From Cyanophora paradoxa CCMP329 (Eukaryota; Plantae; Glaucophyta), in assembly GCA_004431415.1 (NCBI GenBank), contig QPMI01000529.1:9243-73242 (forward strand): 64,000 nucleotides of DNA. The letters run 5' to 3'. A program made the translations under genes and the position numbers. Under the pieces are notes generated by a model, which saw only the letters and a list, made by a program, of their open reading frames with translations, searched no databases and was not told the DNA's origin. Shown in pieces: positions 15,028-64,000 of this stretch; the first letter of the stretch is position 1, and each line of letters opens with the position of its first letter.

Positions 15028-15606
15028 AGCCCCCTCCGCCCATCCCCCATTCGCCATCGACGCCACCGGCTTTCCTCCCGGCCTCGCGCTGGACCCTTCC
15101 TTTTTTTCGAGCTTTCTTTCTCATGAACATAATTCTTTGGATGTCTCTGCTTCGTTCAATTGTTGTCTTGTTGTAGCATTTCTGTATCGGCGTGTGCAGC
15201 ATGAGGTTATAGATTTTTCGCTGCACAAGTGACTGTGGGTGTCCGATGTAATTCATTCGCTAGTGCTGCTTCTCTTTCGAAGGTCTCGGGTATACGTATT
15301 CATAGGCAGCGCCTTCGAATTTTGCGAGTGGCAGTATATGTATGTGCTTTAGGTACATATCCATGCAAGGGTAGCTAGGATAGAGGGCAGCTGCAAATAG
15401 ATAGAGCGCTGGGTCCACCTGCGCCGCTGTAACAATTCACTCGCGCGATCTCTATGTAACCGGCCACACGCATATGCGCATATATGTTCGCAGTGTCCCA
15501 CGCGGCTCGTTCAGAGTGGTGCATTGTTTGAAACAGGTGGGGGAGAAGGGGAGTGGGGAGGCGGGGTGAGGGCCGAGGCCGGCGGGGGCGGGCGCCGTGC
15601 GGGCCG

Positions 15607-44464: not shown

Positions 44465-44700
44465 TTGCGTGCTTGCGCTGGCGGACAGAGTTATCGCGGA
44501 TCGATGTCCCCGACCAGGAAAACACGCGCGTGCGCAGTACTAGCCTAGTAGTACACTGTGACACCTTCCAACCTCCCGCTCCGGGACTTAGTTAACCTCT
44601 ACATCTGGCTGCCCGGCCGCAGTGCTAGTACGAGCCTACTAGGCTAGTACTACGGTAACCTAACAGTAGTACTCAGTGACTGAGAGTCTGAGACTCAGTG

Positions 44701-44767
44701 ACTACCGTGTGGCACGAAAATTACCGTGTGGCAATTTAAAACCACGGCAATTTAACTACTCCTACAG
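44701..44767. mobile_element. Truncated right end of a MITE related to 45391-45615
   Basis: GGCAATTTAA subterminal motifs and terminal TCCTACAG followed by TA, as in the full element. Confidence 0.5.
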
Positions 44768-45000
44768 TACTAGTACGTAGTAGCACCGATCAGCTTGATG
44801 ATGGCATCATGATGCGCCTTGATCTGACTTGCGCATCGATATCATGGGATTCATGGCATGCCGATACCGGTAGTCTCCTGATTCCTGAATCGATATGACG
44901 ACGATATCCTGGCATAATCCTGCCATGGCCATTGGCCAGACAGCAGTGCCACACTGCCACTGTCTGGCAGTGTCTGCCAGCTGCAGCTACTACGCGGCTA

Positions 45001-45352
45001 CTGTAAGCCGGGAAATATTTAGTATACTGGATCTTTATAGTACCAAAGTTTTGAGGCCTGACTACTAAAGTTTTATCGTATACTAAACCGAGGTGCGAGG
45101 GGGGGTACGTAGCCCGCGCGCGCAGCCAGAGTTGCAGTGCGGGAGAAGCTAGCTATAGTGCGAGGGGGCTTCCGGACTCTCCAACAGATCAAGACCCCCT
45201 GGCGCGCCCACCCCCTTCCAGACTTGAAAGGCCGCTACTAAAGCGCTCCGCGCGGCTATCTCTTAATTATTTTCAGCCTACTAAACCGACCAAACCCCGG
45301 GATTATTAATTATTTTGGGGTCTTAAATATTACCCGACTCGGCGAATTACAG
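45001..45352. mobile_element. MITE-like element with imperfect TIRs, flanked by TA
   Basis: Left ta|CTGTAAGCCGGGAAATATTTA versus right TAAATATTACCCGACTCGGCGAATTACAG|ta; non-coding. Confidence 0.55.
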
Positions 45353-45390
45353 TAATCTCCCGAGTCCCGACTCCCGAGTCCCGACTAGTA

Positions 45391-45615
45391 CTGTAGGAAT
45401 GCTTAAATTGCCGCGTAGTTAAATTGCCGAATTCGACCAAAACCGGAATTGCCGTGACGATAGATTGCCGAAACTCTGGATTTCTTCTATGGCGCCATAC
45501 AAAAGCGGCCGTTTAGCCCTACCCCCTGAGAATTGCCGTGGCTTAAAATTGCCGAATTCGGCCTCTCGGCAATATACGGCAATTTAAAACATCGGCTAAA
45601 AAAGCATTCCTACAG
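45391..45615. mobile_element. MITE (Tc1/mariner-type TA duplication) with perfect 14-bp TIRs
   Basis: ta|CTGTAGGAATGCTT ... AAGCATTCCTACAG|ta; multiple internal ATTGCCG / CGGCAAT subterminal repeats. Confidence 0.8.
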
Positions 45616-45783
45616 TACTCCCGACTCGAGAGTCGAGTCCCGACTCCCGACTCTCTCGAGTCCTGACTCCTGACTCCTGAATCGATATCCTACCAGACAG
45701 TGCCAGTTATATATGAGGGCCATCAATGGGCCAAACGCGAAAAGGCAACTCCGAGAGCTCGAGACTCGGAAGTGACGCTTGGA

Positions 45784-45950
45784 TTGCGGAGGTTCTTATA
45801 ACCGCCGCAACAGCTGTGGGGGTACCCCCTCCGAGGCTGGCGATCGCGGCGATCGCGACCCGATCGCGACCCTGGTGATCGCGACTTTCTCCCGATCGCG
45901 ACCCTTTTCGATCGCGATTTCGAGATCGGGGGCATTTCTGCGATCGCGAG
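45784..45950. other. Candidate rolling-circle origin: hairpin plus iteron-like repeats
   Basis: TTGCGGAGGTT-CTTAT-AACCGCCGCAA stem-loop (45784-45810), GGGGGTACCCCC palindrome, then seven GATCGCG copies. Confidence 0.4.
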
Positions 45951-46080
45951 AAAGGAAAAATCGGAAAAGGCCGAAAAGTGCGTTTTTCACGCGTGAAATC
46001 GACCGAAAACGAGGGTTCGAATCCCGGGCCCGGATTTGGACTTGGGCAAAATCTCGGACTGAAATGGGAGAAAAATGGGA

Positions 46081-46160
46081 CCTGGGACTTGGGACTTGGG
46101 ACTTGGGACTTGGGACTTGGGACTTGGGAAGAGTTGGAATCAGAGTCTGGACTCAAAACG
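46081..46160 (+). repeat. (GGGACTT)6 array plus conserved tail, copy 1
   Basis: CCT(GGGACTT)6GGGAAGAGTT.. Confidence 0.95.
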
Positions 46161-46185
46161 GGGAAATTTTCGGAGGGGGAGAAAA

Positions 46186-46656
46186 ATGTCAGGCAATCTC
46201 TATTACGATTTCCCCTTTGAGTTGCATATGGCATTCGAGAGGCTGCGCGAGTTCTGGCGTTGGCACCTCACAGGACATGACATTCCCGACATAACACCAG
46301 AGCCCAACACACAGGGCGTGCTTGAAGTCATCCGTCAATATCCGCGTCGATTCAATGAATGGATCGAGTTCCACGCAACGAACCGTTTCCAGAGTCTCCC
46401 CGAGGCCATACGCGAAAATTTCGTGAGGCTGGTGGGACCAGGCTACGACAACCCTAACAATCATAGACCACGCCCAGCTGGCGTGACGCGCGAAGCTCGA
46501 GAAGACCGTAGACTTTTCCGCAGGGAATTGAGAGAGGATAGACGGAGGCTTTCAATGGGGCTCCCGCAGATTGTGAGGGGGTACAGCCCGGATTACGAGA
46601 CTTACCAAGAATTGTACGGCTTCGAAAATCCCTTTGAGAGGGTACTACCAGGGTGA
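46186..46656 (+). CDS. Viral hypothetical protein (MSGNLYYDFPF..)
   Basis: Intronless ORF with AAAAATG start and upstream ATTTTCGG motif. Confidence 0.7.
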   Translation: MSGNLYYDFPFELHMAFERLREFWRWHLTGHDIPDITPEPNTQGVLEVIRQYPRRFNEWIEFHATNRFQSLPEAIRENFVRLVGPGYDNPNNHRPRPAGVTREAREDRRLFRRELREDRRRLSMGLPQIVRGYSPDYETYQELYGFENPFERVLPG

Positions 46657-46995
46657 GGGGCCAGGGGGGGCCCCTGAGGGTGTACCCCCCATCCGAGACT
46701 CGACCTTCGGCGGACGCACTCGGGCAATTTCCGTCAGGCCGGCTCCTTTTTCTGTCTTCGGTCCAACGCTAAATTTGGCTTTTTCAGGCCAGTTGGCAAC
46801 GTTTTCCGTTGCGAACTAGCCCAGGAAAAAATTCGCCCACAAAACCGCGGTCCGCCGCCATTTTGGCTCACTCTTGAAACGGGTTCGCCGCCTTCTCTCA
46901 GCCCAAGGAATCCCCGCCTCTCCGAATTTTCACAAGTCCGCTCTCTCAGTCACCTCACGTTTTGCCTTTGCTGATCTCTCTTCCCTTTGCGCAGA

Positions 46996-48050
46996 TGTCG
47001 ATTCCCTCTGAGCTTGTCGAGGACCTTGCCAAGGCCCGTGAGATGTGGGCTAAGTCCCGCGATTGGCCTACCCGTGAAATGGAGAAGCGTGCCCGCAAGC
47101 TGGGGTACCTCTACCAAGCTCACAGCGGAGAAGGCTTCCATACCATCAACCTCAACTTTGTATCCACCCTTCTGCCCAAGTCCAAGCAACCCAAGCCCGA
47201 GCCCAAGCCCGAGCCCGTCGACGTGCCCCCCGTCCCCGGCTGGGTCAAGACTCCCACTGGCTGGGGCGACCCCAAGCTTTTCGCCGAGTCTGCCGCCGAG
47301 ACGCTCGCCTGGGCCTATCCCCCTCAAGTCTTCACGAATTTCCCCCCTCCGTCATCGTCGTCATCTGCCCCTCAGCCCGTCGCCGAGCCCGCTCCCGAGC
47401 CAGTCGATGACGCCGAGTCCGAGGCCTCTGACGCCGAGTCTGACATCAACGACTTTATCGACTTTGACGTGCCGATTCCATACGACTCTGAGTCCTCTTC
47501 CGACTCTGAAGGCGACAACGAAAACCCGACTCGCAAGCGCCGCATTATCAAGACCAAGTCAATCGTCAAGAAGAAGTTCATGGAGACCACGTCATTCACC
47601 GACAACTCCGAGCGAGTCAAGAATCCCGCCAAGGAACACGAAAAAGACTTGAAGATCGGCGCTGGCATTGCCCGTTCTCGCGTCACGTCACACTTCAGCA
47701 AGCGCCTGACTCAGCACGTCAAGACCATTGAGAAGCGCATCATCGCCAAGCGCGAAATGGCCGAACTCCGGCGCAAGTTGCGTCACGAGCGCCTTCTTCG
47801 TCGCGAGATGACGCTGGCCAAGATTGCCGAGCGCAAGAAGAAGGAGGCAGCGGAACTTAGGGCGCGCGTCGAGGCTCAGCAGCGGCGCGAGGCAGAGGCG
47901 GCAGCGGCCTTGGCGGCGCAGCGCGAGCAGGAGCGGCAGGACTTAGTGCAGGCAGCGCAGGCCCTTCCCCGCATTCCCCTTAAGTCCGCGCCCGAGGCCC
48001 CGATTGACTTGGTTTCCGATGACGATGATTCTGACTTTGAGATGCTGTAA
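46996..48050 (+). CDS. Viral hypothetical protein with acidic tract, basic/coiled-coil region and C-terminal SIM-like motif
   Basis: Long intronless ORF MSIPSELVEDLAK..; RKRRIIK NLS-like; ends PIDLVSDDDDSDFEML. Confidence 0.8.
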
Positions 48051-48121
48051 ATAGTATTGCGTCATTCCATTGTACATACTTGTAAAAATTGGCCGACTAT
48101 TCAGTTATGACTTGGCGCGAT

Positions 48122-48240
48122 CCTGGGACTTGGGACTTGGGACTTGGGACTTGGGACTTGGGACTTGGGACTTGGGAAGAGTTAGACTCAGGGTCTGGGC
48201 CCAGACTTTCTCTGGATCTGAGAGTTTGCCGTGCCAAGTC
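48122..48240 (+). repeat. (GGGACTT)7 array plus tail, copy 2
   Basis: Direct repeat of copy 1; inverted relative to copy 3. Confidence 0.95.
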
Positions 48241-48540
48241 CCTAACCACCGGGCAGACTTAGAAAGGGGTACGGAAATTTGGATACGACGTTTCTGGTGA
48301 CATTCCAGGTGAGATTTCAAGCGAGGTAGAGTCTGAACTGGTGTACGACTTGTAGCATGATACTGGACATGAAAGCTCACGAGAGTATGCAACCGAAAAA
48401 GGATGTGAAGAGGGGTAGGAGTATTCGTGCGAGATGTCGAGAGAAGGAGGGTACGAGATGGGATACGAGTAAAAAAGACTACGAGTAAAAAAGAGTACGA
48501 GGGGTGGTAGGAGTAAAAAAGTCGGTAGAAAAACTCACCT

Positions 48541-48644
48541 GACTTGTCTGACAAATTTCTGATCCTGGAGAAAGTCTGGGCCGGGACCTGGGTTTCAACT
48601 CTTCCCAAGTCCCAAGTCCCAAGTCCCAAGTCCCAAGTCCCAGG
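48541..48644 (-). repeat. (GGGACTT)5 array plus tail, copy 3 (inverted)
   Basis: Reverse complement matches copy 2, including GGCCCAGACTTTCTC..GGATC..CAAGTC. Confidence 0.95.
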
Positions 48645-48665
48645 TTTTTCTGAACCTAGGGCAAA

Positions 48666-49013
48666 ATGGCCCTGCTCCGGTGCACCGACTCGCAAGACGT
48701 CGCCTACAACGTCCTGGTCAACTCGGACGTACCCCCGAGTGCCTTGGAGTTTCCCTGGAGAGTGGACAGGGACAGGGTGAGCAAGACGTTTGGAGGGCGC
48801 AAGCACTACCTCTCCCAACTGATCCTCGGGAAGTCGCCACGTGGACGCTACGTGGAACACATCAACGGCAACCCGCTGGACTACAGGAGGGAGAACCTGC
48901 GCTGGCATCAATGTCGGATATTCGCAAGAAGAGGAGGGGTACGCCAATTTACAGGAGAAGAGCGAGGAGATTCGGGAGATGATGGAGGCGGCACAGGCGC
49001 TAATGCAGCTTAG
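48666..49013 (+). CDS. HNH endonuclease (HNH_3-like); true C-terminus may lie in the frame ending at 49029
   Basis: YLSQLILG..YVEHINGNPLDYRRENLR matches the V(D/E)HINGxxLDNRRxNLR pattern, with N to Y at one conserved position. Confidence 0.8.
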   Translation: MALLRCTDSQDVAYNVLVNSDVPPSALEFPWRVDRDRVSKTFGGRKHYLSQLILGKSPRGRYVEHINGNPLDYRRENLRWHQCRIFARRGGVRQFTGEERGDSGDDGGGTGANAA

Positions 49014-49018
49014 CCAGT

Positions 49019-49831
49019 CTAGACGCTAGTGGTGTGAATCTTGGTGTCGTACTCGCGACCAACCGTTTCCCAGGCCACGTAAACTTCGGCTCCGGCGCCT
49101 GGCGCTGTCGAGTTGGTAGTCGCAGTCGTGTAGTCCGCCTCTGCCTCAATTAGTTCGGCCATGAGGGTAGAGCCCACGACCATTCCAGAGGTAGGCATTC
49201 CGGCGATGTTGTTGTACAATTTGAAAGTGAATTTCGTGAAGAGGAGCCGGGGCCAGACCTGGGTACGGGGATTCGAGGCGCCGTATGAATAATCGGTACC
49301 CGAGGCGCCGCCCGTGGTGGCATTCGTCATCATCTCCTTTGCGGTCATCTTCCAGAGGTTGTACATCTCAAAGGGAACGGCCTGCGTGGTCTTGTGTGTG
49401 GCATCGATGAGGGCGCCATCTAAATGCGTTTTGATGTTCGGATTCGCACCATTCCCGAATTTGCGAGTGAGGGCGGTGTTAGCGGTGAACTTGAGTTCGA
49501 GCACGCGAATGGCGGGCCGATCAGGCACAGAGGGCTCTATCTTTTTCAGGAGGCCCGAGAGCCAGAGCGCCTCCGCCTCATCCGCGCTCACGCCCGAGTC
49601 GATGTCAAAGTACACGTACACGGAGCAGGAGGCGGGATTCTCGAAATCGTTGGAGGTGACGCGCAACATGACGGGATTCTGGACCCTCACGGTGAGCGGG
49701 GTGGCGTAGTTTCCGTCCCACTCCACCTTGTCCGTCCCTGCGTTGGCCACGTTCCCAGCGTTGCCGTAGAAATCGGGGACGATCGAGCCGGCAGACACGG
49801 TCTTCACGATGGTGGCCGAGGTGGTCGGCAT
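49019..49831 (-). CDS. Viral beta-rich protein, putative structural, paralogue 1
   Basis: Intact 270-aa ORF; shares VQNPV, SGLLKK, LELKF, LFTKF and L.AEL.E with the neighbouring gene. Confidence 0.8.
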   Translation of the reverse strand: MPTTSATIVKTVSAGSIVPDFYGNAGNVANAGTDKVEWDGNYATPLTVRVQNPVMLRVTSNDFENPASCSVYVYFDIDSGVSADEAEALWLSGLLKKIEPSVPDRPAIRVLELKFTANTALTRKFGNGANPNIKTHLDGALIDATHKTTQAVPFEMYNLWKMTAKEMMTNATTGGASGTDYSYGASNPRTQVWPRLLFTKFTFKLYNNIAGMPTSGMVVGSTLMAELIEAEADYTTATTNSTAPGAGAEVYVAWETVGREYDTKIHTTSV

Positions 49832-49854
49832 TTTGCGACCTCAAATGAGAAAGA

Positions 49855-50534
49855 TTATCCGTGAAAGAGGGTGATGTCGCCACCGATGTTCATGACGCGG
49901 GCCCCAGGCACAGAGTCAGCGTCGGTGCCGTACGCGTAGGAAATCGAGCACTCACGCAGCTCCGCGCAGAGGCTGGCGCCCGTGCTGAAGTGGGGCTGGT
50001 CGGCGGCGTAGGAGAGGGGAAGACCTGGAACCTGAAAAAGGTGAAGGGGAAGCGGGGTAGAGTCGAGCCGCGTGGGTTGCCGCCCGTGTAGAGGGCCCCC
50101 AGGGTCGCGGGACTTGGATTGAATTTCGTGAAGAGCACGTCGCCCTTGAGCGTACCCCTCATCTGGTAAGTTCCCGTACCCGGAAGATTCGAAGAACTGG
50201 GGTACCGGTTCACGGTGGGGCCGTACCCCGTCTCCCTGAACTTGACCTCGAGACAGCGCAAGACGTTGGCAGTGGCCGTGGCAGGTGCCACCTTTTTCAC
50301 GAGTCCTGATTCGTGCAGCAGCTCGATAACCTCTGCGCTGAGGCTCAGAGGGTCGAAGAAGAGCTGGTAGGAATAAATCTTGGGCGTGGCGTAGGCGTTC
50401 TGAACGACCTGAATCACGACGGGATTCTGCAGAAAGACGTCGACGTAACTGCCGGAGGGTATGCGTGCGAAATCCTTGGTGTTGTTGCCAACGTCAAGTG
50501 AGCCGCTGAGGGTCTGGTACCAGTTGGAAGTCAT
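49855..50534 (-). CDS. Viral beta-rich protein, putative structural, paralogue 2 (one frameshift)
   Basis: LQNPV, SGLVKK, LEVKF, LFTKF; adding one C in the run near 50017 restores ..GASLCAELRECSISY..TLFHG*. Confidence 0.8.
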
Positions 50535-50572
50535 TTACCCCGGGCAGATATTTTTTCGGATCGTAGAGGAAA

Positions 50573-52712
50573 ATGCCCCGCTTCGTATTCGTGAAAAAGC
50601 AGGTGGTGCAGGCTCCGCAGTATGGCGTGGAGCCGATCTCGCTGACTGTGGGCAGGCCCCAGGTGCGATCGGGCTCCGTGCTCAACAACGGGAACAGTAC
50701 GTACGGCTTTCAGCTGAACTGGGTCGCGGTCACCAACGCCGTCAAGTACAAGGTGTACAGGGCGACCAGCATCAACGGCCCCTGGGATCTCGTGGCCACG
50801 GTGAATGCGCCAACCGTCACCTACACGGACTCTCCCTTTAGTTTGGGGCCCAGCGACTCTACCGCGTGGCGGCGGTTCGCGAACAGGGCAGCAGCAGCAC
50901 GGGCTCTGATGGCAAAGCCCCGCCCACAACCTACGCACAGTCGCTTCTCTACACCCACGAGGGTGCCATGAGCAATTACATTCTCTTCCAAGGCATAGGC
51001 GGCTTCAGCCCGCAGATCGAAGCCTACACCACGCTCACGACCGCCACGGCCCAGACCTACGGCGATTTTATTGCCGGGGGCGGCCCCGCGTCTTCGGGCT
51101 TCCCGAAACCCGCCATAGTCGTCACAATCAACTGGGTGGCCATGGAGGGCGCGGACTCGATTCGAATTTACAGGAACGGTACGCCAATCGGATTTGCGAG
51201 CAGTGCCCTGTCTACCTCGTACATTGACGATAGCACTGCTCTTACGTGGGGCACGGAATACTCTTACCAGGTGGCCGGCATCGTGGGCGGTGTCGAATAC
51301 GACAAGTCCGATCCGCTCCTGGTCTGGACTATGCCAAACGCCCCCACGAACGTGACGGCATCAGCACCCAACGACCAGCAGCAGCCTGTCAGCCTCAGCT
51401 GGACTGCGTCCACGGGAGCGACGGGATACAAGATTTACAGAGACGGGGCCTACCTCACAGACTCCGCGACCAACTCCTACAGCGACACGACCACCGTCTG
51501 GGGTACAGGGTACGAGTACCAGATCTCCGCGACGAACACGGGAGGGGAGGGGCCGAAGAGTATTGCGGCGTACGTCACCACGGACCCGGGGGCGCCCACT
51601 GGGCTCACTGCAACCCCCGCGGCGGGGGCAGCACAGCCTGTTGTGCTCGAGTGGTCGGTGCCGGTGACGGGCGTCACCGTCTCCTACAACATCTACAGGG
51701 GTGGCGTGTTCCTTGCCAGCGACACGAGCAGCCCCTTTTCGGACACAACGACCGTTTACGGAACCACTTACACTTACACCATCAAGGGCGTCAACCAGAT
51801 CGGCGAGGAAGGCCCTCAGTCCTCGTCTGCCAGTGCAACAACTGCAAACGCTCCTGTTTTGGGTACATTCTCCTACACCGGGGCCGACCAGACTTTCGTA
51901 GTACCAACGGGGACTGTGGCTGTGCGTGTCATCGTATGGGCGGCCGGGGTGGAGGCGGAGAACGCGCAGGTACGGGGGTCCGTGGAGGCGCGGGTGCTTG
52001 CGTAGTTGGTACATTGGCTGTGTCCTCGGGGGAGACGCTCATCCTTGTTGTTGGATGCGGCGGCCCAAAGGGTGTATCGGGGACTGCCACTGCTACCGTC
52101 TACGGAGGTGGTGGAAGGGGCTGGAGCCATAGCGTCGATCCGGAGTACAAAAACGGCGCCGGTGGTGGTCGTTCTGCAATTCAGCGCGTTGCAGGGACCG
52201 ACTTGGTTGTTGCAGGGGCCGGAGGTGGGGGTACATGTGATTCGAATGGCGGCGGGGGAGTAGGCGGGGGGTTGACCGGTGGTGCGGCTGGGTTGGTTGG
52301 AGTAACCGGAGAGATACCGGCTCAAGGAGGCACCCAAACCGCTGGCGGAGCCGGTGTTGTGGCCTCAGGGGCCAGGCCCAGCAACCCGGGAACTTTGCGC
52401 CAAGGTGGAGAGACTGGGCCTGATTCAAGCGGCTACAGGTTCGGTGGTGGTGGTGGTGGTGGTTACTTCGGTGGAGGCTCTGGGTCCAGCAGGAGCGGAG
52501 TGTCAGAGAACCCAATAGCAAGAATGTTTGGAGGTGGCGGTGGCTCGAGCTACATAGGAAACTTGACGGATGCTACGGTGTATCCTGGGTCCGGCCAGGT
52601 GGCAGGAAATAGCGGAGACGCTCACTACGCAGCAGGCATTGGTAGGGGCGGCAACGGTGGCTCGTCTTTCAGCGACGGTGGCAACGGTCGAATTGTGATA
52701 CTCGCGGTGTAG
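50573..52712 (+). CDS. Virion fibre/adhesin: tandem fibronectin type III repeats plus C-terminal glycine-rich domain (two frameshifts)
   Basis: Repeated LSW..GA.GY.IYR.G...Y.D...G..Y.Y.(I/V).A; FSYTGADQTFVVP..GTLAVSSGETLILVVG..GGGGGGYFGGG..GGGGSSY..GGNGRIVI. Confidence 0.85.
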
Positions 52713-52732
52713 TTATTCCTAGTTGTTCCAGA

Positions 52733-53800
52733 TCAGCTCGCCAGTGCCGCTACCTGGTCTTTGAGAGTTTGAACTTCTTGTGAAAGTTCCTGAATTGCCT
52801 TCAACGACAGGGAAATGAGCCTGTCGTAGTTTACCCCGAGAAATCCATCCGCGTTCTCGAAAACGAGACTCGGGAAGACGCCTTGGACTTCCTGTGCGAT
52901 GAGACCGTAATCCGTTTTCGAACCCCCCGAGGATGTGTTCTTCCAGGTGAACGACACGGGATTCAGCTGCAGCAGAAGAGGGAGAATGCCCGACATGCTC
53001 GCGACATTTTCTTTCAGGCGGCTATCGCTCGACGAGTTTGTCAGGTATCCTTGAGCATCCGAATAAACGGCTCGGTTTCCATCGCCCGTGAGCGTCGAGA
53101 CGATGAGCCGACCCGTGATGCCAACGCCGACGGTTCCGCACAGCAGTCGTTCGGTGCCGTTGTTTCTCAAGGATAGACCAGAGCTGACGCTGACGCTTCC
53201 GCTATCAACGATTGAAGTGTTTGCTATGCTTAGGCCATTAGTAGGGCCTTCGATTGCCGAGGTAAATAGAGTACCTGTAACACCAACGCCAAGAGTCCCA
53301 CAGAGGAGTCTATCGTTTTCGTTGTACTTTATAGCTACGCCTGAACCACCGCCATTTATGTACGGTGACGTTCCGGTAATTTGCAGCTTATCGTCCAATG
53401 TAACGATGCCCGCCAAGTTTGAAGCCCCGCTCACCCTAAGCCCCCCCACCACGTTTGCTCCGCCTCCTTGCACATACAGAGCCGCATTCCCCTCCCCGTT
53501 CACAGTCCCATTAAAGGTCACCTGATTCGTGGTGTACCCGCTCCCGTCCCAGGCCCCGTTCGTGACGGTGAGCCTCTGCGTCCTCACGCGCCCCGGCACG
53601 GCCGACCCGCCCTCCCGCGTGCGCATCTTGTCGCAGCGCAGCTCGCCGACGCGGACGAGGTCGGCCTCGGAAAAGGGGACGGCCGTGGCGTTGTAGGGGG
53701 CCTCGGTGGCCTGGTTTCCGAGGGTGGTCTCCTTAATCGTGTGATCGCCCTTGTGATTCACGCTGGCAGCATAGGTAAATAGAGGGACAGCGACCGACAT
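52733..53800 (-). CDS. Fibre protein with C-terminal intramolecular chaperone (peptidase S74)
   Basis: SSDSRLKENV..L.PVSFTWK..GLIAQEV..FP.LV..VNY..LI...KAIQEL plus coiled coil; upstream duplicated RLLCGT(L/V)GVG repeat. Confidence 0.92.
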   Translation of the reverse strand: MSVAVPLFTYAASVNHKGDHTIKETTLGNQATEAPYNATAVPFSEADLVRVGELRCDKMRTREGGSAVPGRVRTQRLTVTNGAWDGSGYTTNQVTFNGTVNGEGNAALYVQGGGANVVGGLRVSGASNLAGIVTLDDKLQITGTSPYINGGGSGVAIKYNENDRLLCGTLGVGVTGTLFTSAIEGPTNGLSIANTSIVDSGSVSVSSGLSLRNNGTERLLCGTVGVGITGRLIVSTLTGDGNRAVYSDAQGYLTNSSSDSRLKENVASMSGILPLLLQLNPVSFTWKNTSSGGSKTDYGLIAQEVQGVFPSLVFENADGFLGVNYDRLISLSLKAIQELSQEVQTLKDQVAALAS

Positions 53801-53824
53801 TTTTGGATTGCATCAGAAAATCGA

Positions 53825-56800
53825 TTACATAAGCAGCTTGCCGATCGCGGTCCAATGAATAAAAAGCTGGACAATTTGGGTGGGCGTGACCGTCATTCTG
53901 GGTTGGAATCTCACTTTAACTGTAAAGCCAGTGTGACTCACCGCCGTGACGTTGGCCCCGTAGAAATCGACATCCGTGCTGCCGCCGGGATTGATGTCGA
54001 ACGAGGGGGTTACGTTAATAACCGGCGTTGGGTTTGCTGGGGTCCCCAGTCCGCCTCCAGTGTCGTACGCCTGTCCGAATGTAATGTTGAACGTCACCGT
54101 GTATGTTGAATTGATGTTAAACTCCGTGTACGCAGCGTAGGAGTGGAAGGACGTGCCGTGCGTTATGTACGCATCCATGTTCACGTTTCTGTGCCCGTGG
54201 CTGGTGAGCGAGTACTCTGTGTGACTGTGCGTAGAGGGTGGGAAGGAAGTGGGTCGGTCGATGACATTATCCCAGTACACATTGTGACTGTGTGTAGAGG
54301 GGGGGAAGGTAAGTGGCTTGCCCGTTACGTTGTCCCAATCCACGGAGATGTTCGTCAAGTCCGGGGCCGTCCAGTCGCTGATCTGAGAGATGGTGTGCTG
54401 GTGGTCTGCGTGGGGATACGTACTCGGCTTCCCCGTGATGCTATCCCACGCCCACGTTGTTGGTATCACGGGTATCGTCGGCCTCCCGCTGAGATCTGCA
54501 TACGCCCCCGTGTGTGCCACCGTCGCCAGCTGCGGCACGGCAACGCCCACGGTGCTCACGGCCTGGCTCGCCCCCGGCGCCATGTGCCACTCGTAGTTCT
54601 GCGATGCAAACACGGGCTGGCCTGGCTCGGGCGCCCAGTACTCGATGCCTTTGGCGATCTTCTTGGTGTATGGTGCTGCAGGCCTGTCAACCAATTTATC
54701 GACGTAGGCCTTGGGTACCAGCCAGTTTGCCTTGGGGCTCTGCGAATTGATCCCGTTGTCTATGAAGGCCCCGTAATTCCTGAAGGCCTCGGCCTCCCAC
54801 CAATCCTGCATGCGGAAGGTCCCGGGAATCTCGAGGCGCGAGTTGGCGTCCGCCAGGCGGGCCACCTGCGCCCCTCCGTTCGACGAGACGCCCGAGTGAC
54901 GGATGGCCGAGCCGAATTCGCGCCTTAGGGCTTCGATGTGATTGATCCTGTTGAGGCCCTCCTGGTAGACGGCAATTAAGACGCGCTTCCGCCCCTTGGT
55001 CTCCTCCTTTATCATCTGCTTCAGGTCGCGCATAAGTCGACTCAGGGCGAGCGAAGTCGACCCGAAGCCCTCCTGCATTTTAACGGTGAGCTGGGAGAGG
55101 AAGAGCACGGTCGCGCGATCGATTTCGAGCAGGGTCTTCTGGTCCTTGGGGTACGGTAATCGTTGATGCTGTTGTCGAGCGCGCGAATGAAGGCCTGCAG
55201 CTCCTTCGGCTCCTTGATTTCGTTTAACCGCAGCTCCTGGGCCAAGAGCGAGGCCATTTCGCGCGCCTCCGAGGGGTCGTACACACCCAAAAATCCGGAG
55301 CCCAGCTCGCCCTCCAGCCGATTAATTCGGTTGCGCAGCTGGCTCGCCTCGTCGCCCCACGTCTCGACGCCCCAGTCGTAGATCTGTTGCGAGAGCTCCG
55401 CGATGAACTGTATGGTGTCGGTCGCCCAGTCGACGGGGTACTTGAAAAAGTTCTTCACGATTTCTTCCGCGCTGCGCCCGTTGATGATATCCACGATCAC
55501 CTGCGCGATGGCGCCCGCGAGGATGGACAGGCCAAGTCCGCCCACCGTGCCGATCCTCATTTTCGTGAGGGCGCTCAGGGCGGACGACATGCCCGTCTGA
55601 AGGCCAAAAGAGCCGACCGTCATGATCATCTGATCGCGGAACGTATCGAAGAACTCGGCCTCCCCTATCTTGCCCTGCGAGAGCGCCTGGTAGGCCGAGA
55701 GCAGGCCGCCGGCCGTCGCCAGCCCAAGGCCCGCCGCCGCCGCGCCCGCCCGCCGCATGGCCCGCGAGCCCGTACCCCCGAGCCCGGCGCCCACCAAGTC
55801 GATGCCCGCCCCCTGAAATAAATCGGCTGCCCGAAAGACATGCCGTCGTTGTTCGCCGTACCCGCCGCCGAGAAGAGCGTCTCGGCGCTGAGGGCCTCCT
55901 TGGCCACCCCGGGCCGCCTTGCCCTCGGGCGCCCCAGGTACGCGTCGCGCTGCTCTTTGGTGGTGAATCGCTCGAGGTCGAAATCGGCGAGGGCGTCGGC
56001 GGTGGCGCGGTTCCAGTCGCCGTAGGGCATGAGGGCGTTGCGCAAAATAACGTCCGAGTCGCCCATCACGCGCCTGTCGAGCGTCTGAAACACGCCCTCG
56101 GAGGGCAGGCGGGCGGTGCCCGGGCGCATCTCCTCCACGGAAACGTCGTCCCTCTCCGCGAGTGTGATGTCGTCTGGGCTGGCCAAGCCGACGCCCGCGC
56201 CCTCATCGGCGTACGCCCTTCCCCTTCGTTTTAATATTTGATTGGCCTCCCGTTTCAATGCTTGGTACTCTGTCTCTACCTTGGTCTTTCTTGCCTCTTC
56301 CTCTGCCGCCTTGCGCTCTGCGATCTTCCGCCTCTGCTCTTCTATCTCGGCGTTGCGTCTCGCCGCGTTCTCCTTGGCTTGCTGCTTCCGCTCTTCGATC
56401 ACCCTGTTTGCGTACTCCTTGTCCGCTTGGGCCTTTCTGTAGCGCTCCTCGATCTGACTCTTGGCCTCGTCTCCTCTCTTCCTTAGATCGCCCATGAATG
56501 CCGTCGTATCTATGTGAATCTTGTATTTGGCGGGTGGGTGCTCACGTTTGAAGGCCTCCAGATCGCGCACCATGGCATCGTACTGCGCGAGCCCCTCCGC
56601 TGGAATGATGGCTCTTCGCATTTCCCAAAATTTGCTCAGCTTGCCCACGTAATCGACCATGGAGAGGTACGCGCTCTGTGCGCCCGCGCTCACCGTTTTC
56701 GGATTGGCTCGCAGCTCTGCCAAAAACTCCCCCTTTTGTATCCGGTACAGTGACCATTCGAGGGCTCCCCGCCACAGGCTCGCTTCCGTCCGCAGTTCTC

Positions 56801-58928
56801 TGTGCATCTCCTCCACGTCGCCGTATGCTATCCAGATGGCATCGCTGATGGGCCTCTGAACAGCCTGACGCTCAAAGTTTTTCCACTTCTCATCGGCCAT
56901 CTTTCTCCTCAGTTCTTCGGCGTCTTTCTGACCCCTTCCCGTCAGCTGATCCATAACGTAGCTAAAGTCGCGCATGTTCTCTTCCATGGCGCGGAGCCTG
57001 TCCCCGATGCATTTCCTTCTTTCAGTCTTTTGAGCTCCGAGCGGTAAAAATCCATCTGCGCCCCCCTGAACGTCTCCAGTCGTCGCTTACGCTCCGCTAC
57101 CTTCGGCTCCTCCAGCCGTGCAAATTCCTCGTCTGATGCAGTTTGCATTGCCTTCAGTCGTTCCTCTTCTGTCTTGGCAGCTGCCTCCTCGTCCGCCCTG
57201 CGCCGCTGCTCTAACGCGTCGAAGAGGGCCCTCTGATCCTCGAGCGTGAGGCCAATGAGCTCTTCCACCTGGTCGCTCCTACCCAGCCGCGCGAAGGGCA
57301 GCCTCTCGGCGGCCGGCCTTGGATCGGGCCTTGGCGTCGTCTGCGTCTCCATTGTGCCCCTTGGCACAGCCGTCCCTATCCTCTGCAGCTCGGCCGTCAG
57401 CGTTTTCACTTGCTGCTCTAGGTTGAATCGTATGGTGGATGCGAGCCCCTCTGCCTTCTGCCTCTCCTGTTCTCGCAGTTCGAGCTGCCTTAAATCCTCC
57501 TTTGCTTTTCTGGCTTGCTCCTCCGCTGCCTTTCGCTCATCGTCCAGCATCTTTGTGCCCTCTTCGACCTCGTTTGCTATGTTGACCTTGTTTGCTATTT
57601 CCATGTCCAGTTTCTCCAGCTCGGTCCTTGCCTGCTCCTTTGCCTCCCTTATCGCGTTTTCCACGATCCTATCGGCCTCTCTCTTCCGGATCTCGGCTTT
57701 CTCCTCGGCCTCCAGGGATTTCTCAATTCTATCGCTCGCCTCTTTCAAATCGTCCGCTATCTTTTTCTCGGCCGCTGTCCTCATTTCGTTAAATTGCCGC
57801 TCCCTTGTCTTCAGCTCCTCTGCCAGTATTCTCACCTGCTCGTCTGAGTAAACGATCGTTTTGTTATCTTTCTGCAGCTCTGCAATGTCCCTTTCGTACG
57901 CCTTCCGATCCCTGTAGTACTTTGCACCGCCTGCAATCAGGGCCGCGCCGAAGATTCCCGTTGTTGTACCAAGGATCGGCACGAGCGTACCCCCTCCGCC
58001 GCTCTCTCCGCCCGAGCCGCCGCCACCCGAGCCGCTGCTACCCCCGCCCCCTCCCACGGGCGTGCCACTGGAGCCCCCTCCGCCCCCCCCCCTGTACTCC
58101 CACCCCCCGTACCTGTACCCCCACCCCGGTGCCTGTACCCCACCTCCCGTGCTTCCGCCGCCCGTACCCCCACCCGGAATCGCGCCCGGCACCTTGGGCC
58201 CGCCGATGATGTCGTCGTACAGGTGGCGGTGCGCCCAGTCCGTGATGTCGGCCTTCACATGCGGGTGCTTGACGAGGGCGTACCTCTCGTCGTGGAAGTG
58301 GTCCTTCAGCGCCCAGTTCTGCGTCTTCGCCCAGTCTGAGCGATCGGGGAGCACGTCGGGTGCCGTTGGGATGCGGCCCCCGCCCGTCGTCTCCGGCGTC
58401 TCGCCCGTCCTGTCGGCGCTCAGGGCGCGGATGTTCACCTTGAAGTGGTCGAACCACGCGAAAAACTCCTCCCTGTCGCGCCTGTACTGCTCGGGCTCCA
58501 TGCTCGGCAGCGCCTGGCGGCTCCAGTAGATGTGGCGCAGGGGCCCGCGATGCGCTCGAGTGCGTTGTACCCGGGCCTCACGTCCCCCTCTGCGCCCTTT
58601 AGAGTCAGTTTCACGAGGTTCAGGGTGGCGTCTTTCGCTGTAACGGAGTTTGCGATTTTCACGTCGGCCGCCCTCTTAATAATGTTCCAGTCCACGCCCG
58701 TCTCGGTCGTGACGCCCAGAGCCCCTTGATAATTGCGGTGAGGTCACCGTAATCGTCCAAGGTACCGACGGACGTCAGGAAATCGCTGTAGGTCGCGCCC
58801 TTGCGCAGCCTTATCTCGTCCGCGTAAATTCCCCTCACGCTCAGGCTCCCGTCTATCGCGAAGGCGCCGTTCAGCACCTCGTCCGGATTCGGGATGGCCA
58901 TGCGCCAGGGGTCGTCGAGCATCGACAT
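53825..58928 (-). CDS. Very large virion protein (about 1700 aa when joined): Gly linker, long coiled coil, hydrophobic segments, phage tail-fibre repeats, beta-sandwich tip (five frameshifts)
   Basis: Six consecutive ORF pieces join by single-base additions in G/C runs; C-terminal LATVAHTGAYADLSGRP, WDSITGKP..HQH, WDNVTGKP.TFPPSTHSH repeats. Confidence 0.8.
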
Positions 58929-58953
58929 TTTATCCGCGAGAGAGAAAAATTAA

Positions 58954-59428
58954 CTAATGCTCCGCGTCCCACGTCCACTTCAGCTTGCCGCTCACCTCGC
59001 CCGTTGTCCAACGGCCCACGGGCACCTGCCAGAAAACGTCGGCGTAGGGGTAATCGGGCCTGATAGTGATCTGCTCGTCACGCAGCCAGCGGTAGGCCTC
59101 GGAGGCGTCGCGTATTTTCGGCTCCCAGTATTCCCCGCCCGTGCCGTTCGGCAGCGAGTACCCTCCCTTGCTACCCGTACCCTGTAAACGTGCTCGCCCG
59201 TTAGCGTGTCTACCCCCCTGTACTCGAATTCTACGATTAAGGCCAAGTCCTGCCATGCGCTCTCGCCGAGACGGATGTGACTGAGGCTGTGCAGCAGCCC
59301 GTATTTAATTGGACCAGAGGCGGTTACAAGATCGACTCTGTAAGTGAGGGGCGAGGGTAGCCAGGCACGCCCGTAAAGGTGCGCGTCTTGACGCCCGAGC
59401 CCTTCCGCGGAAATATGATCAGGCGCAT
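58954..59428 (-). CDS. Viral hypothetical protein (two frameshifts)
   Basis: MRLIIFPRKG.. / LTYRVDLVTASG.. / YSLPNGTGGEYWEP..WTWDAEH*; upstream ATTTTCGC motif. Confidence 0.65.
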
Positions 59429-59448
59429 TTAAGGGGGCCTGCGAAAAT

Positions 59449-59898
59449 CTATTTCGCAAAGGCCCAGAGGCCGAAGTTCTTGACGATGAAGGCGTTGTTC
59501 TTCTTGGTGGCGCCCGTGATGTCGGTGAAGCGCACGCGCAGCTCCTGGAACTTGTCGTACGCGACGTAGTTCGGGCGCACGGCCATGGGCACCTCGAACC
59601 AGTAGAGGATGGTGTTCTCGAGGCCGTCGTGGCCCCACGTCGGGATCACGACCTTGTTGATGCACGTGTTGACGTTCGAGATGGTCGTGACGTTCAAGTC
59701 GGGCACGTCCATCAGCAGAACGTTGACGGTTTTCGCGGCGGTGGGGTCCGGAATCGCGGTCGTGTCCAGCTCCAGGTAGACGCCCTTGATCTGCAGCGTG
59801 TCGATGTCGGCGGGGATCTGGTTCAGCCTGAGGCGCCAGAAGCCCTCGGAATCCTGCGTCTCTCCGTTCGACTGGACGTAGAGGTTGACGCAGGACAT
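59449..59898 (-). CDS. Putative minor capsid (penton, single jelly-roll) protein
   Basis: 149-aa beta-strand pattern (VNLYVQSN..LQIKGVYL..KVVIP..ELRVRFTDITG) typical of Bamfordvirae pentons; pattern recognition only. Confidence 0.5.
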   Translation of the reverse strand: MSCVNLYVQSNGETQDSEGFWRLRLNQIPADIDTLQIKGVYLELDTTAIPDPTAAKTVNVLLMDVPDLNVTTISNVNTCINKVVIPTWGHDGLENTILYWFEVPMAVRPNYVAYDKFQELRVRFTDITGATKKNNAFIVKNFGLWAFAK

Positions 59899-59921
59899 TA
59901 TTTAGGAAGGGGCCTGAGAAA

Positions 59922-60110
59922 TTATGCCTTCCTCAGGCCGTTGAGGAGGTAGGGCCCCACGAAGTAGTAGCCCGCGAACTGCGCGGCGAGGATCCGCACG
60001 AGGTAGTAGCGCGCGGGCGACATGTAGGCGACCGCGCCGAGGGTCAGCAGGCTGCCCAGGTAGCGGGAATCGCTGGTGATATCATCGAGGCTCGGGAGCA
60101 TGGACGACAT
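59922..60110 (-). CDS. Small two-TM membrane protein
   Basis: 62 aa with two hydrophobic stretches; upstream AATTTCTG motif. Confidence 0.7.
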   Translation of the reverse strand: MSSMLPSLDDITSDSRYLGSLLTLGAVAYMSPARYYLVRILAAQFAGYYFVGPYLLNGLRKA

Positions 60111-60132
60111 TGTTAAGGGCCCATTCAGAAAT

Positions 60133-60762
60133 TTACTTGGGCATGAAGAAATTCCTGACGCGCTCTCCCTCCTCGTGCAGCGCCCACTGCAGCCGGTCGA
60201 TGACGGCGGCCATCACGGGCGGGCTCGCGGCGGGGTTCTTCGCGTACGCCCGGGCGTCCTCTGCCATCTGGGGGTGGTACTGCTCGACGCGCTTGGCGTA
60301 GCTCGCGATGGCGCGGCGGGTGCACCGATCCAGGTCAGCCGCCATTTCCGCCGGTGCCTTCGGCTGCTGCTGCTTCTTTCGCGCGTAAGTCCTAAGAAGC
60401 CAAGGGTAGGCCGCGGTGCTGCTGCTGGAGTTGCTGGGCGCTGGAGCCTCTGCGCTGGGGCTGGTGTCGCGGGAGTCTCCATTTCCCATGTTCTCTAGAA
60501 AAAAACGGGTACCGGTTTGCGTCATCTGAATGTCGACGTGGTGCGGCCCTATGTTCTGCGTGCTCTCGCGCCTCTGCTGCTCCGGTGGGGGTTCGGGCTC
60601 GGGCTGTCCGCGGCGGACGACCCTAAGGGCCGCCGCCTTCAGGGCGCCCAGCACTGTGTTGGGGCCGACGCGCTCCGTGCCGCCCAGCAGCTCCGAGACC
60701 AGGAAGAGCGCGCCGCAGACGACGGTGATGATGTCCGAGTGGGTGCATTCCCCCTGGAACAT
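60133..60762 (-). CDS. Small membrane protein, in frame with a probable second gene starting at 60489 (MGNGDS.., N-myristoylation-like)
   Basis: IITVVCGALFLVSELLG hydrophobic helix; internal TTTTTTCTA motif just upstream of ATG GGA AAT. Confidence 0.65.
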   Translation of the reverse strand: MFQGECTHSDIITVVCGALFLVSELLGGTERVGPNTVLGALKAAALRVVRRGQPEPEPPPEQQRRESTQNIGPHHVDIQMTQTGTRFFLENMGNGDSRDTSPSAEAPAPSNSSSSTAAYPWLLRTYARKKQQQPKAPAEMAADLDRCTRRAIASYAKRVEQYHPQMAEDARAYAKNPAASPPVMAAVIDRLQWALHEEGERVRNFFMPK

Positions 60763-60784
60763 TTTCGCGGGCCCGTCAGATTTA

Positions 60785-62814
60785 TTATCCGCTACCCCTT
60801 CCCCTTCCGCGCCCCTTGCCTTTGCCGCGCCCTCGGCCCCTGGCCCTCAGGTCGCCGATTTCCGCGGCCTGCGGCGCGAAGCGGGGATCGTCCGCCTGGC
60901 CGGCGTCCGCCTGGAAAATCGTGAAGAGGTACCCGTCCGTGTTGTTGTCGGTGTTGTTCGTGTTTCGCGCGTGCGACCACTCTTTCAGTAAATCGCGCCT
61001 CTGCTTGTCGGGCAGCGTCTTTGAGAGGTACTCCTGCAGCTTGCTCGCGTAATTTTCCTCTGGGATCAGCGACGCAAGGACGGTGGGCGGATCTTTCCCC
61101 ATGCCTATCTTCTCTTCCGTCAGCATGCGCTCGAGCTCTGCGATTTCCACCATCGTATCGATGCTCGGTTGAGGCCCTGCCTCTGCCCTCTTCTGGTCTA
61201 CGAGGCGCTGCCCCGCCGCCGTGAATTTCGCGGACAGAATTTGGTGCAGCCGCTCGTACACCGTCGTGGTGCTCGGCTCCTTCTCCTTCAGCAGCACCAC
61301 CCAGTCGTAATTCGCCCACAGCACCTGCAAATTCGATATGTGATCGATCGTCACCAGCACGTGGGCGTGCAGCGCGCCGTCCGTCGGCCCCACCTCCACG
61401 CCCCCTTGCACGCGAATTCCGATGATTGCGTTGGCGTACGTGTCGTCCTTGTACTTGCCGTTCTCTTCCTTCATATTGAAGCGTATGAACTTGTAGAATT
61501 CTGCATCCGAGAGCACCTCTGCGAGGCTGTCGCGCAGCGCCGCCGCCTCGAATTCTCGCGCCTCTCCCAGGCGCTTGTGGGTGTTGAAGAGCACCCAGTA
61601 GCGCGACTGGCGCGCCTGTCGTATGTCGTACCGCGTGCTTCCGTCGGGATTCTTTTTGTTGAGGATGAAGACCGACCGCCCCGTCTCGCTGATTTCCGTG
61701 ATCACCTTCTCGAGCGCCTCCAGCCCGTTTGCCTGCGCCGCCTGCAGTCCCGTTTTCGCCTTCTCTATGTTCTGCTTTACCTCTTGCGCGTCCGCGAAGG
61801 TTGCCATTAAATCTTCCATGCTCGGCGCCACGATTTTCGCCTTTCTGATTTTCGACTGCGCAGAGTTGGCTCGATGACGGACGATCCGAAGTCAGCGGCC
61901 GTATCCTTTGCCTTTTTCGTGGTCTTTGGCTTCGGCCCGCCGAGCACGCTCTCGACCATGTGGTCGCGCGTCTGCTTGGAGACGGTGGCCGTGTCGCCCC
62001 TCTTTCGCCTCTGCAGGCCCAAGATCACGAGCAGGCCCTTGTTGCCGAGCAGCGTGACGCACTTCTGGCAGAGCCACGAGTTTCTGGGCGACACCGTGGG
62101 CACCTGCGCCGGCTTCTTGTCCTTGATGAGGGGGTACGGCTCCTGGCCCTTTTTCTTTCCCTTGCCGTTTTGCTTGGCCGCCCACGCGTTTGCCTTCTCT
62201 ATGACCGCGACGTACTCTTCGTACACGGCATCCTTCCTCGCCTGCGCTGCCTCCCTCGCGGCGATTTTCTCTGGCGTGTTGGCCCCCTTGGCGCTCGGCA
62301 CGGGCGTGGCTTCGTACATGAGGCGAAGGCAGCGGTAGCAGATTGGCGGCGATTTCTGCGCGCTCTGGTACGTGCGCGGTATGGCGCGCAGTCGCTCCTC
62401 GGGGAGTTTATCGTACTCGATTTCGCTGTGGATGCTCCAGAGGGTCGCGGGCTCGTGGTATGATTTATCGAGCAGCGATGGGAGCATCTGAACTTCTTTG
62501 GTGGCCGAGAGCTTGATGTAATCGGATATGCTCTTCTGCTGCTGGAATATGCCGTCCTCGCCCTGAACCAGCACGTATCGCTTCGGAATCTCAACGACGG
62601 GCGTCTCGAGCTCGTCCACGCCGGTATCGGGCGCGTTTCCCTTTGCCTTTCCCTTTCCCTTCCCCTTGCCCTTGCCCTTCGGCTTAGGCTCCGGCTCCTC
62701 TTCCTCTTCCTCCTCTTCTTCCTCCGACTCGGAGGACGGGGACGTGGGCTCCTCTTCCTCTGACTCGCTCGAGCTCTCTGGCTTCTTCTTGCGGCCTCGG
62801 CGCTTCGGAGGCAT
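60785..62814 (-). CDS. Long HUH endonuclease: acidic/basic N-terminus, CxxC..CxxC, C-terminal HUH Rep-like domain (one frameshift)
   Basis: Motif I YWVLFNTH, motif II EVGPTDGALHAHVLV, motif III YLSK; CYRC..CQKC; ORFs 61807-62814 and 60785-61831 join by one added G near 61870. Confidence 0.8.
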
Positions 62815-62835
62815 TTATTGGACACGAGAAAAAAT

Positions 62836-63675
62836 TTACACGAGCTTTACAGCGCCCGTCTCGAGGGCCTCTACCGTCTTCGTAATGTACAGCTGCAGCA
62901 GATCCTTAAGGTTGCTCTGCGGCAGCAATTTTACGTCTACGTGCATCTGCCTGGCGGTTTCTCGCTTCCTGTAGCCCGTCTCCTTGCCCGTCCACTGCAT
63001 GCCGAGGGCGTCCTTTCTCCGTATCGGCCGCACCGCCGTCTTCTGGTACTCCTCCCCGAACCAGTCGTCCTTGTAGAAATTCGGCAGGCCGCCCTGCCCT
63101 CCGTTTGCATGAACTTGATGAGGAAATCCGACGCCTTCTTGCCGTCGAATTGCACGCGCGAGTAGTGCACCAGCGTGAGCAGGATGTGCGCGTGGAGCCG
63201 CCCCGACCGCGGCCCGTACTCGATGCCGATGTTCGCGTTGCCCTTCTCCACGTGCGTGTCGTACTGGTCGGACTTGAAATCGAAGCCCTTGGGGTTCGCC
63301 TTGTCGGGGTACACCCCCATCTTTATGCACCGCGCCAGCTGCCTGTCGTCGTAGAAGAGGGCCTCCAGCCCCCTGTGAAACGCGTCCTGCACCTTGGAGC
63401 CCTCTCCCCTGCTCCGCGGCTTGTAGTTGGTCTGGATGGTGATCATGAAATTCGACTCGCGCTGCGGCCGATCCTCCCGTTCAGTTTCCTCACGGGCGCC
63501 GCGTCCAGCACCTTCTGGAACACGTCTTGTCGGGCGCCAGCACCTTGTCGTTGATGTTGCCCACCACGATGTGCGTCTCTACCCGGGAGCGGCCGGAGGC
63601 GTCCATGCGGAGGTGAGGGTTCGGTGCCCGGGCTTGCCTGTTTGCTGCCACGCCCCTCGCGATGAGGTTGAGCAT
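62836..63675 (-). CDS. HUH rolling-circle replication endonuclease (three frameshifts)
   Basis: Motif I FMITIQTN, motif II EYGPRSGRLHAHILL, motif III YITK; start preceded by AAAATTTTCTA. Confidence 0.85.
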
Positions 63676-63748
63676 GTCAGACCAAGGCCTAGAAAATTTT
63701 CCGAGGCTGGGGTGAGCTTCCACGTGGGGCCCCGGGGTACGTCCGCAC

Positions 63749-63790
63749 CTCACCTGAGCATCACCTGAGCCTCACATGAATCACCTGAGC
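63749..63790 (+). repeat. TCACCTGAGC direct repeats in the divergent intergenic region upstream of the HUH gene
   Basis: Three exact copies plus a degenerate TCACATGAA. Confidence 0.75.
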
Positions 63791-63905
63791 AACGCCTTCT
63801 GCAACAAGTGCTTCCTCACTTGCAAGTGGGACCCACTCTCTCTGAGAAGCCAACCTGTTGGGTTCTGCAGGGAATAGCTCAGCTGCAGTACGAGGACTCA
63901 GAGGA

Positions 63906-64000
63906 ATGGCAGACTCTAACGAAATCGATCTCCTCCTCCGAAACTTCGAGCAGATCCAGCGCTACGGCGCCATCCTTCACGACGGGGGACCCAGACTTCG
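63906..64000 (+). CDS. Start of a viral ORF running off the window (MADSNEIDLLLRNFEQIQRYG..)
   Basis: Open frame to the window end. Confidence 0.45.
   Translation, partial: MADSNEIDLLLRNFEQIQRYGAILHDGGPRL

Follow-up and report, generated by a model that had tools for sequence, protein, structure and literature searches.

The window analysed here is a 64,000-nucleotide stretch of contig QPMI01000529.1 from the freshwater glaucophyte alga Cyanophora paradoxa CCMP329. Its right part, from position 45,708 to the window end, is an integrated element of 60% GC that encodes two HUH endonucleases. The left 30 kb is host DNA of 71% GC, with AMP-binding (acetyl-CoA-synthetase-like) and SNF2 genes that contain short GT-AG introns, and about 15 kb of lower-GC (53%), repeat-bearing DNA separates these GC-rich host genes from the element. 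From 46,186 onwards the element carries about 15 packed genes (about 88% coding on approximate extents; Table 1), in agreement with an original prediction, made from the letters of this DNA, of more than 18 kb of tightly packed genes. That prediction also held the element to be contiguous with intron-rich host DNA, which the host introns and a contig across the junction (below) support. It mentioned neither the frame breaks nor the multi-copy state of the element.

The two HUH genes lie in tandem on the reverse strand. Both products have motifs I-III (LHAH and YITK in the short HUH; LHAH and YLSK in the longer protein, HUH_long), and a profile built from the HUH proteins of 17 viral loci matches both (2e-29 and 2e-21), so that the two HUH endonucleases of the original prediction stand. 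HUH_long has an acidic/basic N-terminus, two CxxC motifs and a C-terminal HUH domain. By sequence comparison, a single HUH_long gene comprises the open reading frames (ORFs) at 62,814 and 61,819, because other copies read through and an intact 613-aa protein, P0125, matches both parts. An intact 279-aa metagenome protein, P0029, aligns collinearly with the short HUH across three frame breaks (66% identity over the query), and the short HUH has 123 phmmer matches at E<=0.001, including proteins of 1,500-1,900 aa with a C-terminal HUH. Neither HUH protein has a Pfam or PDB sequence match, and the Atlas gives no more than a weak lead to PF21578/PF23343. The longest contig listed is 8,181 nt for each of three Logan proteins, P0031, P0125 and P0290, so one relative outside the Cyanophora genome probably keeps HUH, HUH_long and the 149-aa gene together.

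From an alignment of 20 phmmer hits we fetched 17 IMG/VR loci. We label such loci gamadvirus-type by their HUH/HUH_long tandem, VLTF3 and A32 ATPase rather than by name; none of five identifiers tried was found in the supplements of Yutin et al. In at least 8 of the 17 viral loci (L003, L004, L007, L011-L014 and L017) a short HUH is directly followed by a long HUH on the same strand, as in the window. The fetched viral loci carry VLTF3 (PF04947) nearby, and an A32 ATPase is present in all three searchable records. Phylogenetic analysis of 42 chosen rows places the window HUH_long and P0125 as sister to 8 gamadvirus-type HUH_long proteins (98/88); frame-broken Cyanophora copies were left out of this tree, and the window short HUH entered it with its N-terminal part only. 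In the gamadvirus-type loci L005, L006 and L010 a short HUH without an adjoining HUH_long faces a VLTF2-like gene in the opposite orientation. Scans of viral contigs with the window proteins or their alignments returned no loci, with two matching stretches in one scan, and metagenome scans for the element gave no matches.

For the published systems compared here, statements refer to the passages and tables available. HUH duplication has been named as a gamadvirus trait (Yutin 2024, PMC11253617). Like the element, the 'Gamadviridae' (Pleurochrysis endemic viruses, Phaglo-G; PMC11253617) have a short HUH and then HUH_long on one strand, with motifs I-III, and a polymerase is seen neither in them nor, by Pfam, in the visible 18.3 kb of the element. 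In contrast, their HUH_long measures 1,500-2,100 aa, against about 680 aa with CxxC motifs here, and is followed by an SF3 helicase, where the element has structural and fibre genes. The element also differs from them in its glaucophyte host and its tens of copies. A further parallel is that a relative, Phaglo-G, was reported from a haptophyte genome assembly (bioRxiv 2022.07.28.501842). Yaravirus brasiliensis (Yaraviridae) shares an HUH with the element and, like the visible half of the element, has no polymerase. Unlike the element, it is a lytic amoeba virus and has no HUH_long in Yutin's Table 1. Thus, of the original description as Mriyavirus/Yaravirus-like, the HUH kinship to Mriyaviricetes holds, whereas the HUH and HUH_long tandem points to the gamadvirus side and not to Yaravirus.

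The original prediction had suggested looking for reads across 45.7 kb and for other copies. We compared four sequencing runs, as assembled short-read contigs, with positions 44,001-46,075 only, and place the left end of the element at 45,707/45,708. In run X1 a 147-nt contig spans 45,590-45,736 with zero differences and a depth of 193, against 183 in the flank; in run X2 the flank has a difference-free match as far as 45,113. Among the loose-end rows listed (there are 228 further rows), the sequence to the left of 45,708 is a different one in four X2 contigs (agreement 0.53), and two joints, seen in X1 and X5, pick up the element at 45,708 with sides of 24 and 30 letters, so several insertions have one common left end. 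No single contig spans the whole of 44,001-46,075. Insertion occurred repeatedly at one defined genome end, and the claimed integration in a chromosome is supported by the junction contig at flank depth and by other flanks at the same end.

The search for other copies returned family genes on 33 distinct named contigs, counted as names over homologue and cluster listings; some of these contigs may be redundant assembly pieces. The 10 HUH_long homologues are all tig-type gene models on 10 contigs (the three looked up are labelled Cyanophora paradoxa), and the same label stands on every named member of two clusters that were formed at 90% identity and contain window proteins. There are two element subtypes, with near-identical and about 70% identical copies. 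Single contigs of the terminal region are 10-17x deeper than the flank. The copy number is in the tens, although depth is not usable as an exact count. In 14 runs dated 2012-2024, 79-81% of the words of 44,000-53,500 are present.

Two side observations concern these ends. In X1 the junction at 45,590-45,736 (depth 193) and its flank (183) have roughly double the depth of other copies' joints (87-94), which may reflect a duplicated flank, or homozygous versus hemizygous insertions. Two other copies carry pieces of the host repeat motifs of 45,361-45,620 upstream of their left end, and a preference of the element for repeat-rich intergenic sites is possible.

We consider it likely that the window holds the leftmost 18 kb of a single copy of an integrated multi-copy element, probably a small double-stranded DNA virus whose lineage is the sister group of the gamadvirus-type Mriyaviricetes. 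Several points weigh against this. In the 42-row tree the short HUH does not belong to the clade of gamadvirus short HUH proteins, and the two branches joined as sisters for HUH_long are long. The element's HUH_long has less than half the gamadvirus length and an N-terminus unlike theirs, so that the family profile matches the HUH domains only. Among 22 families common to at least four gamadvirus-type loci, only the HUH family matches the element convincingly. The other 21, named by gene order (Mriya_48/50/51, helicase and others), have no match in the visible half beyond two marginal ones (E 0.016 and 0.034); RuvC and PDDEXK, looked for via Pfam alone, gave none. The visible 18.3 kb contains no capsid, ATPase, VLTF or helicase gene by Pfam and by VLTF2 and VLTF3 profiles. 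A VLTF3 profile search returned no Cyanophora protein among the best 120 of 382 matches, which are mostly gamadvirus-type. In gamadvirus gene order the A32 ATPase and VLTF genes lie upstream of HUH, and the equivalent position here is beyond the window. A published major capsid protein (MCP) like those of nucleocytoplasmic large DNA viruses (NCLDV) lies on tig00020936, a contig that also carries a family gene; this speaks for the proposed reading but may be chance given 366 such MCPs in the genome. At the junction, the short-read contig crosses 45.7 kb without differences, but its element side has 29 letters, 2 under the 31-letter bridging rule; one of the two joints has a 24-letter side, and ragged left ends may also exist at further copies.

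The short junction side, the position of the junction in repeats and the indel-rich sequence would also suit a misassembly in which host DNA was fused to a free virus or a contaminant. The difference-free contig at flank depth, the same end with other flanks in other copies, the spread of family genes over 33 named contigs and the recovery of most words from 14 runs dated 2012-2024 make this the most improbable of the explanations considered.

A second alternative is a Zora/VC218-like or polinton-like virus (PLV) whose unseen half encodes an rve integrase and whose replication module is the mriyavirus-type HUH pair. Zoravirus (VC102) and VC218 are mriyavirus-related small viruses, some with HUH like the element. 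They measure 20-30 kb and combine HUH with rve (57% and 62% carry rve), whereas mriyaviruses are reported to lack integrases (bioRxiv 10.64898/2026.06.19.733378). An HUH by itself is no proof of membership in Mriyaviricetes, because Zora/VC218 viruses carry HUH and rve integrases. About 85 of 156 glaucophyte elements carry rve and none a tyrosine recombinase (Bulzu 2025, PMC12220804, Table S6, where a column alignment ambiguous by one gives rve in both readings), which counts against the gamadvirus-sister reading, and a C. paradoxa element with tail repeats and H_lectin is filed there as a PLV. Insertion of many copies at a precise end fits an integrase, and the unmatched gamadvirus families other than HUH also favour this alternative. 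On the other hand, HUH duplication and HUH_long are unmentioned for Zora/VC218 in the passages available, and the window HUH_long groups with gamadvirus-type HUH_long. In addition, 18 kb without a capsid or ATPase gene leave little space in a genome of 20-30 kb. The visible half contains no rve, tyrosine recombinase or pPolB by Pfam. The ends of rve elements start TG or AG, and the shared end here starts TA, a weak argument. Overall, we regard a virus of this kind as unlikely, though clearly better placed than a misassembly. The element is not placed in the 'Gamadviridae', and its class membership hinges on the capsid module.

The existence of such elements in Cyanophora was largely anticipated in print. 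Bellas 2023 (PMC10120064, Tables S2/S4) lists 366 NCLDV-like MCPs in C. paradoxa, in groups of 272 and 94, and at least 6 have NCLDV-type HHpred matches, including the one on tig00020936. Mriyaviricetes-related regions are reported from a Glaucocystophyceae assembly (bioRxiv 10.1101/2025.04.19.649669), where accidental insertion is suggested for Nucleocytoviricota-related regions and HUH is unmentioned in the text available. These regions and MCPs share with the element the host group, the embedded state and, through the MCP on tig00020936, possibly NCLDV-like capsids, and they are likely the same family, although the shared left end contrasts with accidental insertion. The words 'integrat' and 'endogen' do not occur in the parts of Yutin 2024 (PMC11253617) examined. 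Our literature search, with most subscription papers outside its reach, found no description of the HUH pair or termini of Cyanophora elements. In the new endogenous lineage first proposed, the novelty lies with the divergent HUH pair, with the end common to several copies and with the question of how the element integrates, whereas NCLDV-like MCPs and Mriyaviricetes-related regions had already been published.

The absence of a capsid gene from the window, the common end of the copies and the CxxC motifs before the HUH domain, which recall zinc-finger HUH transposases, would be expected of a rolling-circle transposon of the Helitron/IS91 kind that lacks a capsid and carries viral genes as cargo. 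This is quite improbable. Neither window HUH, nor their intact relatives P0029 and P0125, has a helicase domain by Pfam, so the Helitron Rep-helicase fusion is not found. Among labelled HUH proteins, the nearest neighbours belong to viruses that have ATPase and VLTF3. The different copies all retain three fibre genes, the beta-sandwich protein and the promoter-like motif as one set, and the outside relative probably does so too.

Table 1. Features of the element and its insertion site (window positions; extents approximate where genes are frame-broken)
Feature	Position	Strand	Evidence or remark
Host flank at insertion site, dispersed high-copy repeat motifs	44,730-45,707		Summed depth up to ~55,000 vs 183 in flank, run X1
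Left terminal non-coding region, structured DNA	45,708-46,185	+	End common to other copies; folding z -4.1 for 45,690-45,960
Heptamer array, 7.7 copies, G-quadruplex-type pattern	46,076-46,129	+	
156-aa ORF	46,186-46,656	+	No family match; shared upstream motif
Candidate 59-nt host-type intron	46,936-46,994	+	Directly 5' of ATG at 46,995
351-aa charged, coiled-coil-like ORF	46,995-48,050	+	Shared motif absent
Non-coding region, two inverted heptamer arrays	48,105-48,660		Arrays 48,124-48,177 and 48,603-48,642; 78-nt arms, 88%
HNH endonuclease	48,666-49,013	+	Pfam HNH_3 E 5.7e-6; PHROGs
270-aa protein	49,019-49,831	-	15-member cluster at 90% identity
Frame-broken paralogue of 270-aa protein	49,858-50,534	-	31-40% identity in common part
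FN3-repeat and glycine-rich (ALK/LTK-type) fibre-like gene	50,573-52,712	+	Three frame pieces
Tail-fibre-like protein with Peptidase_S74 chaperone	52,733-53,800	-	Pfam E 2.7e-14; PHROGs
Overlapping frames, probably one ~1,700-aa structural protein	53,825-58,928	-	Joining of frames putative
~155-aa gene	58,957-59,428	-	In frame pieces
149-aa protein, modelled beta-sandwich, candidate minor capsid	59,449-59,898	-	
62-aa hydrophobic ORF	59,922-60,110	-	
One frame, probably two genes: ~90 aa with one hydrophobic segment; 118 aa starting MG at 60,489	60,133-60,762	-	
HUH_long, ~680 aa	60,785-62,814	-	Frame break near 61,870
Short HUH endonuclease, ~280 aa	62,836-63,675	-	Three frame breaks vs intact P0029
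Probable start of divergent gene, cut by window end	63,777-64,000	+	Read from sequence

Many genes of the element are frame-broken. The gene models of other copies break elsewhere, which suggests long-read errors, and the breaks are probably assembly errors of this kind in young copies. The three fibre-type genes and the HNH gene of the original prediction were recovered with Pfam and PHROGs. The third fibre-type product (53,825-58,928) is glycine-rich, with a coiled coil and hydrophobic segments, and ends in C-terminal phage tail repeats with an H-lectin-like tip, the H_lectin match being weak (E 0.012). The 149-aa protein, for which the penton-like role of the original prediction is no more than possible, is predicted with low confidence (pLDDT 55) as a beta-sandwich with generic matches only (best Z 7.3). 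It does not match the profile of the gamadvirus family in the minor-capsid position, and its homologues are Cyanophora copies and three outside proteins. The model of the 270-aa protein has pLDDT 29, and its Atlas matches all lie under 0.9. Small membrane proteins had been proposed; the ~90-aa protein passes the hydropathy cut-off, but the 62-aa ORF fails it. The proposed myristoyl-type protein does have its MG start (118 aa, at 60,489), and that start is the whole basis of the assignment. No tRNA was found in a search of the window, and Rfam gave no match. Four copies of an 11-nt repeat (63,750-63,791) separate the start of the short HUH from the divergent gene that comes after it.

The common promoter motif of the original prediction is also present. 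The motif [AT]5C[TG] lies upstream of 13 of 15 chosen ATG starts, compared with 32 among 371 ATGs of the element and 20 among 523 of the host; it was picked after the starts had been viewed, and a 16th, non-ATG row was dropped. The description as intronless fits the packed genes, with one probable exception, the 59-nt host-type intron before the ATG at 46,995. In 46,850-46,994 this intron is preceded by a CCGCCATTTT motif, which we take to be a YY1-type initiator element. Six runs that we guess to be RNA (from five studies) contain 37-43% of the words of 44,000-53,500. In X16, one of the six, no more than 33 bases fall on 44,001-46,075, where DNA depth peaks, so its share must lie in the gene region (46,076-53,500). 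If the guess is right, this hints that the gene region of the element is transcribed.

BLASTN found no similarity between the element and the flank, and the TBLASTX output was low-complexity noise. In the flank, a 90-aa ORF at 41,465-41,760, without a family match, has an upstream sequence that resembles the element's motif. Lower-GC fragments at 30,300-34,200 look like a beta-helix adhesin-type host gene, although neither of two pieces tried had a Pfam match. Two near-identical acetyl-CoA-synthetase-like genes lie in opposite orientation at 8,000-15,150.

For a virus sister to the gamadvirus-type Mriyaviricetes, we envisage the following life cycle. The short HUH would nick an origin, for which the inverted heptamer region at 48.1-48.7 kb is a candidate, and a host polymerase would copy the genome in the nucleus by rolling-circle replication, following the proposal of Yutin et al. 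The shared upstream motif may drive late structural genes. The 351-aa ORF, which lies behind the host-type intron and lacks the motif, is a candidate early gene. The capsid, packaging ATPase and late transcription factors would lie beyond 64,000. For integration, HUH strand transfer is our best single guess, but host repair of a linear genome is about equally plausible and an integrase in the unseen half hardly less plausible, and none of the three is probable taken singly. It is possible, though doubtful, that an integrase-less, capsid-bearing giant-virus relative was inserted by HUH, with HUH_long as a rolling-circle integrase, at tens of glaucophyte sites, and is largely intact and transcribed, with a host-type intron in an early gene.

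Mriyaviruses have been proposed to resemble the ancestors of giant viruses, and it is a prediction that they replicate by rolling circle, as is the function given to the second HUH gene. Judged from its sequence, the element appears to behave as a polymerase-less, HUH-dependent mriyavirus that has integrated many times. Because the family is young and has many copies, and the alga is in culture and sequenced, both termini, target sites, circular forms and expression are addressable from existing reads. If an rve integrase is present, the element would simply add to the PLV-like elements, its replication module being a borrowed one. If HUH does integrate the element, it would represent a provirus route undescribed for this phylum in the literature searched.

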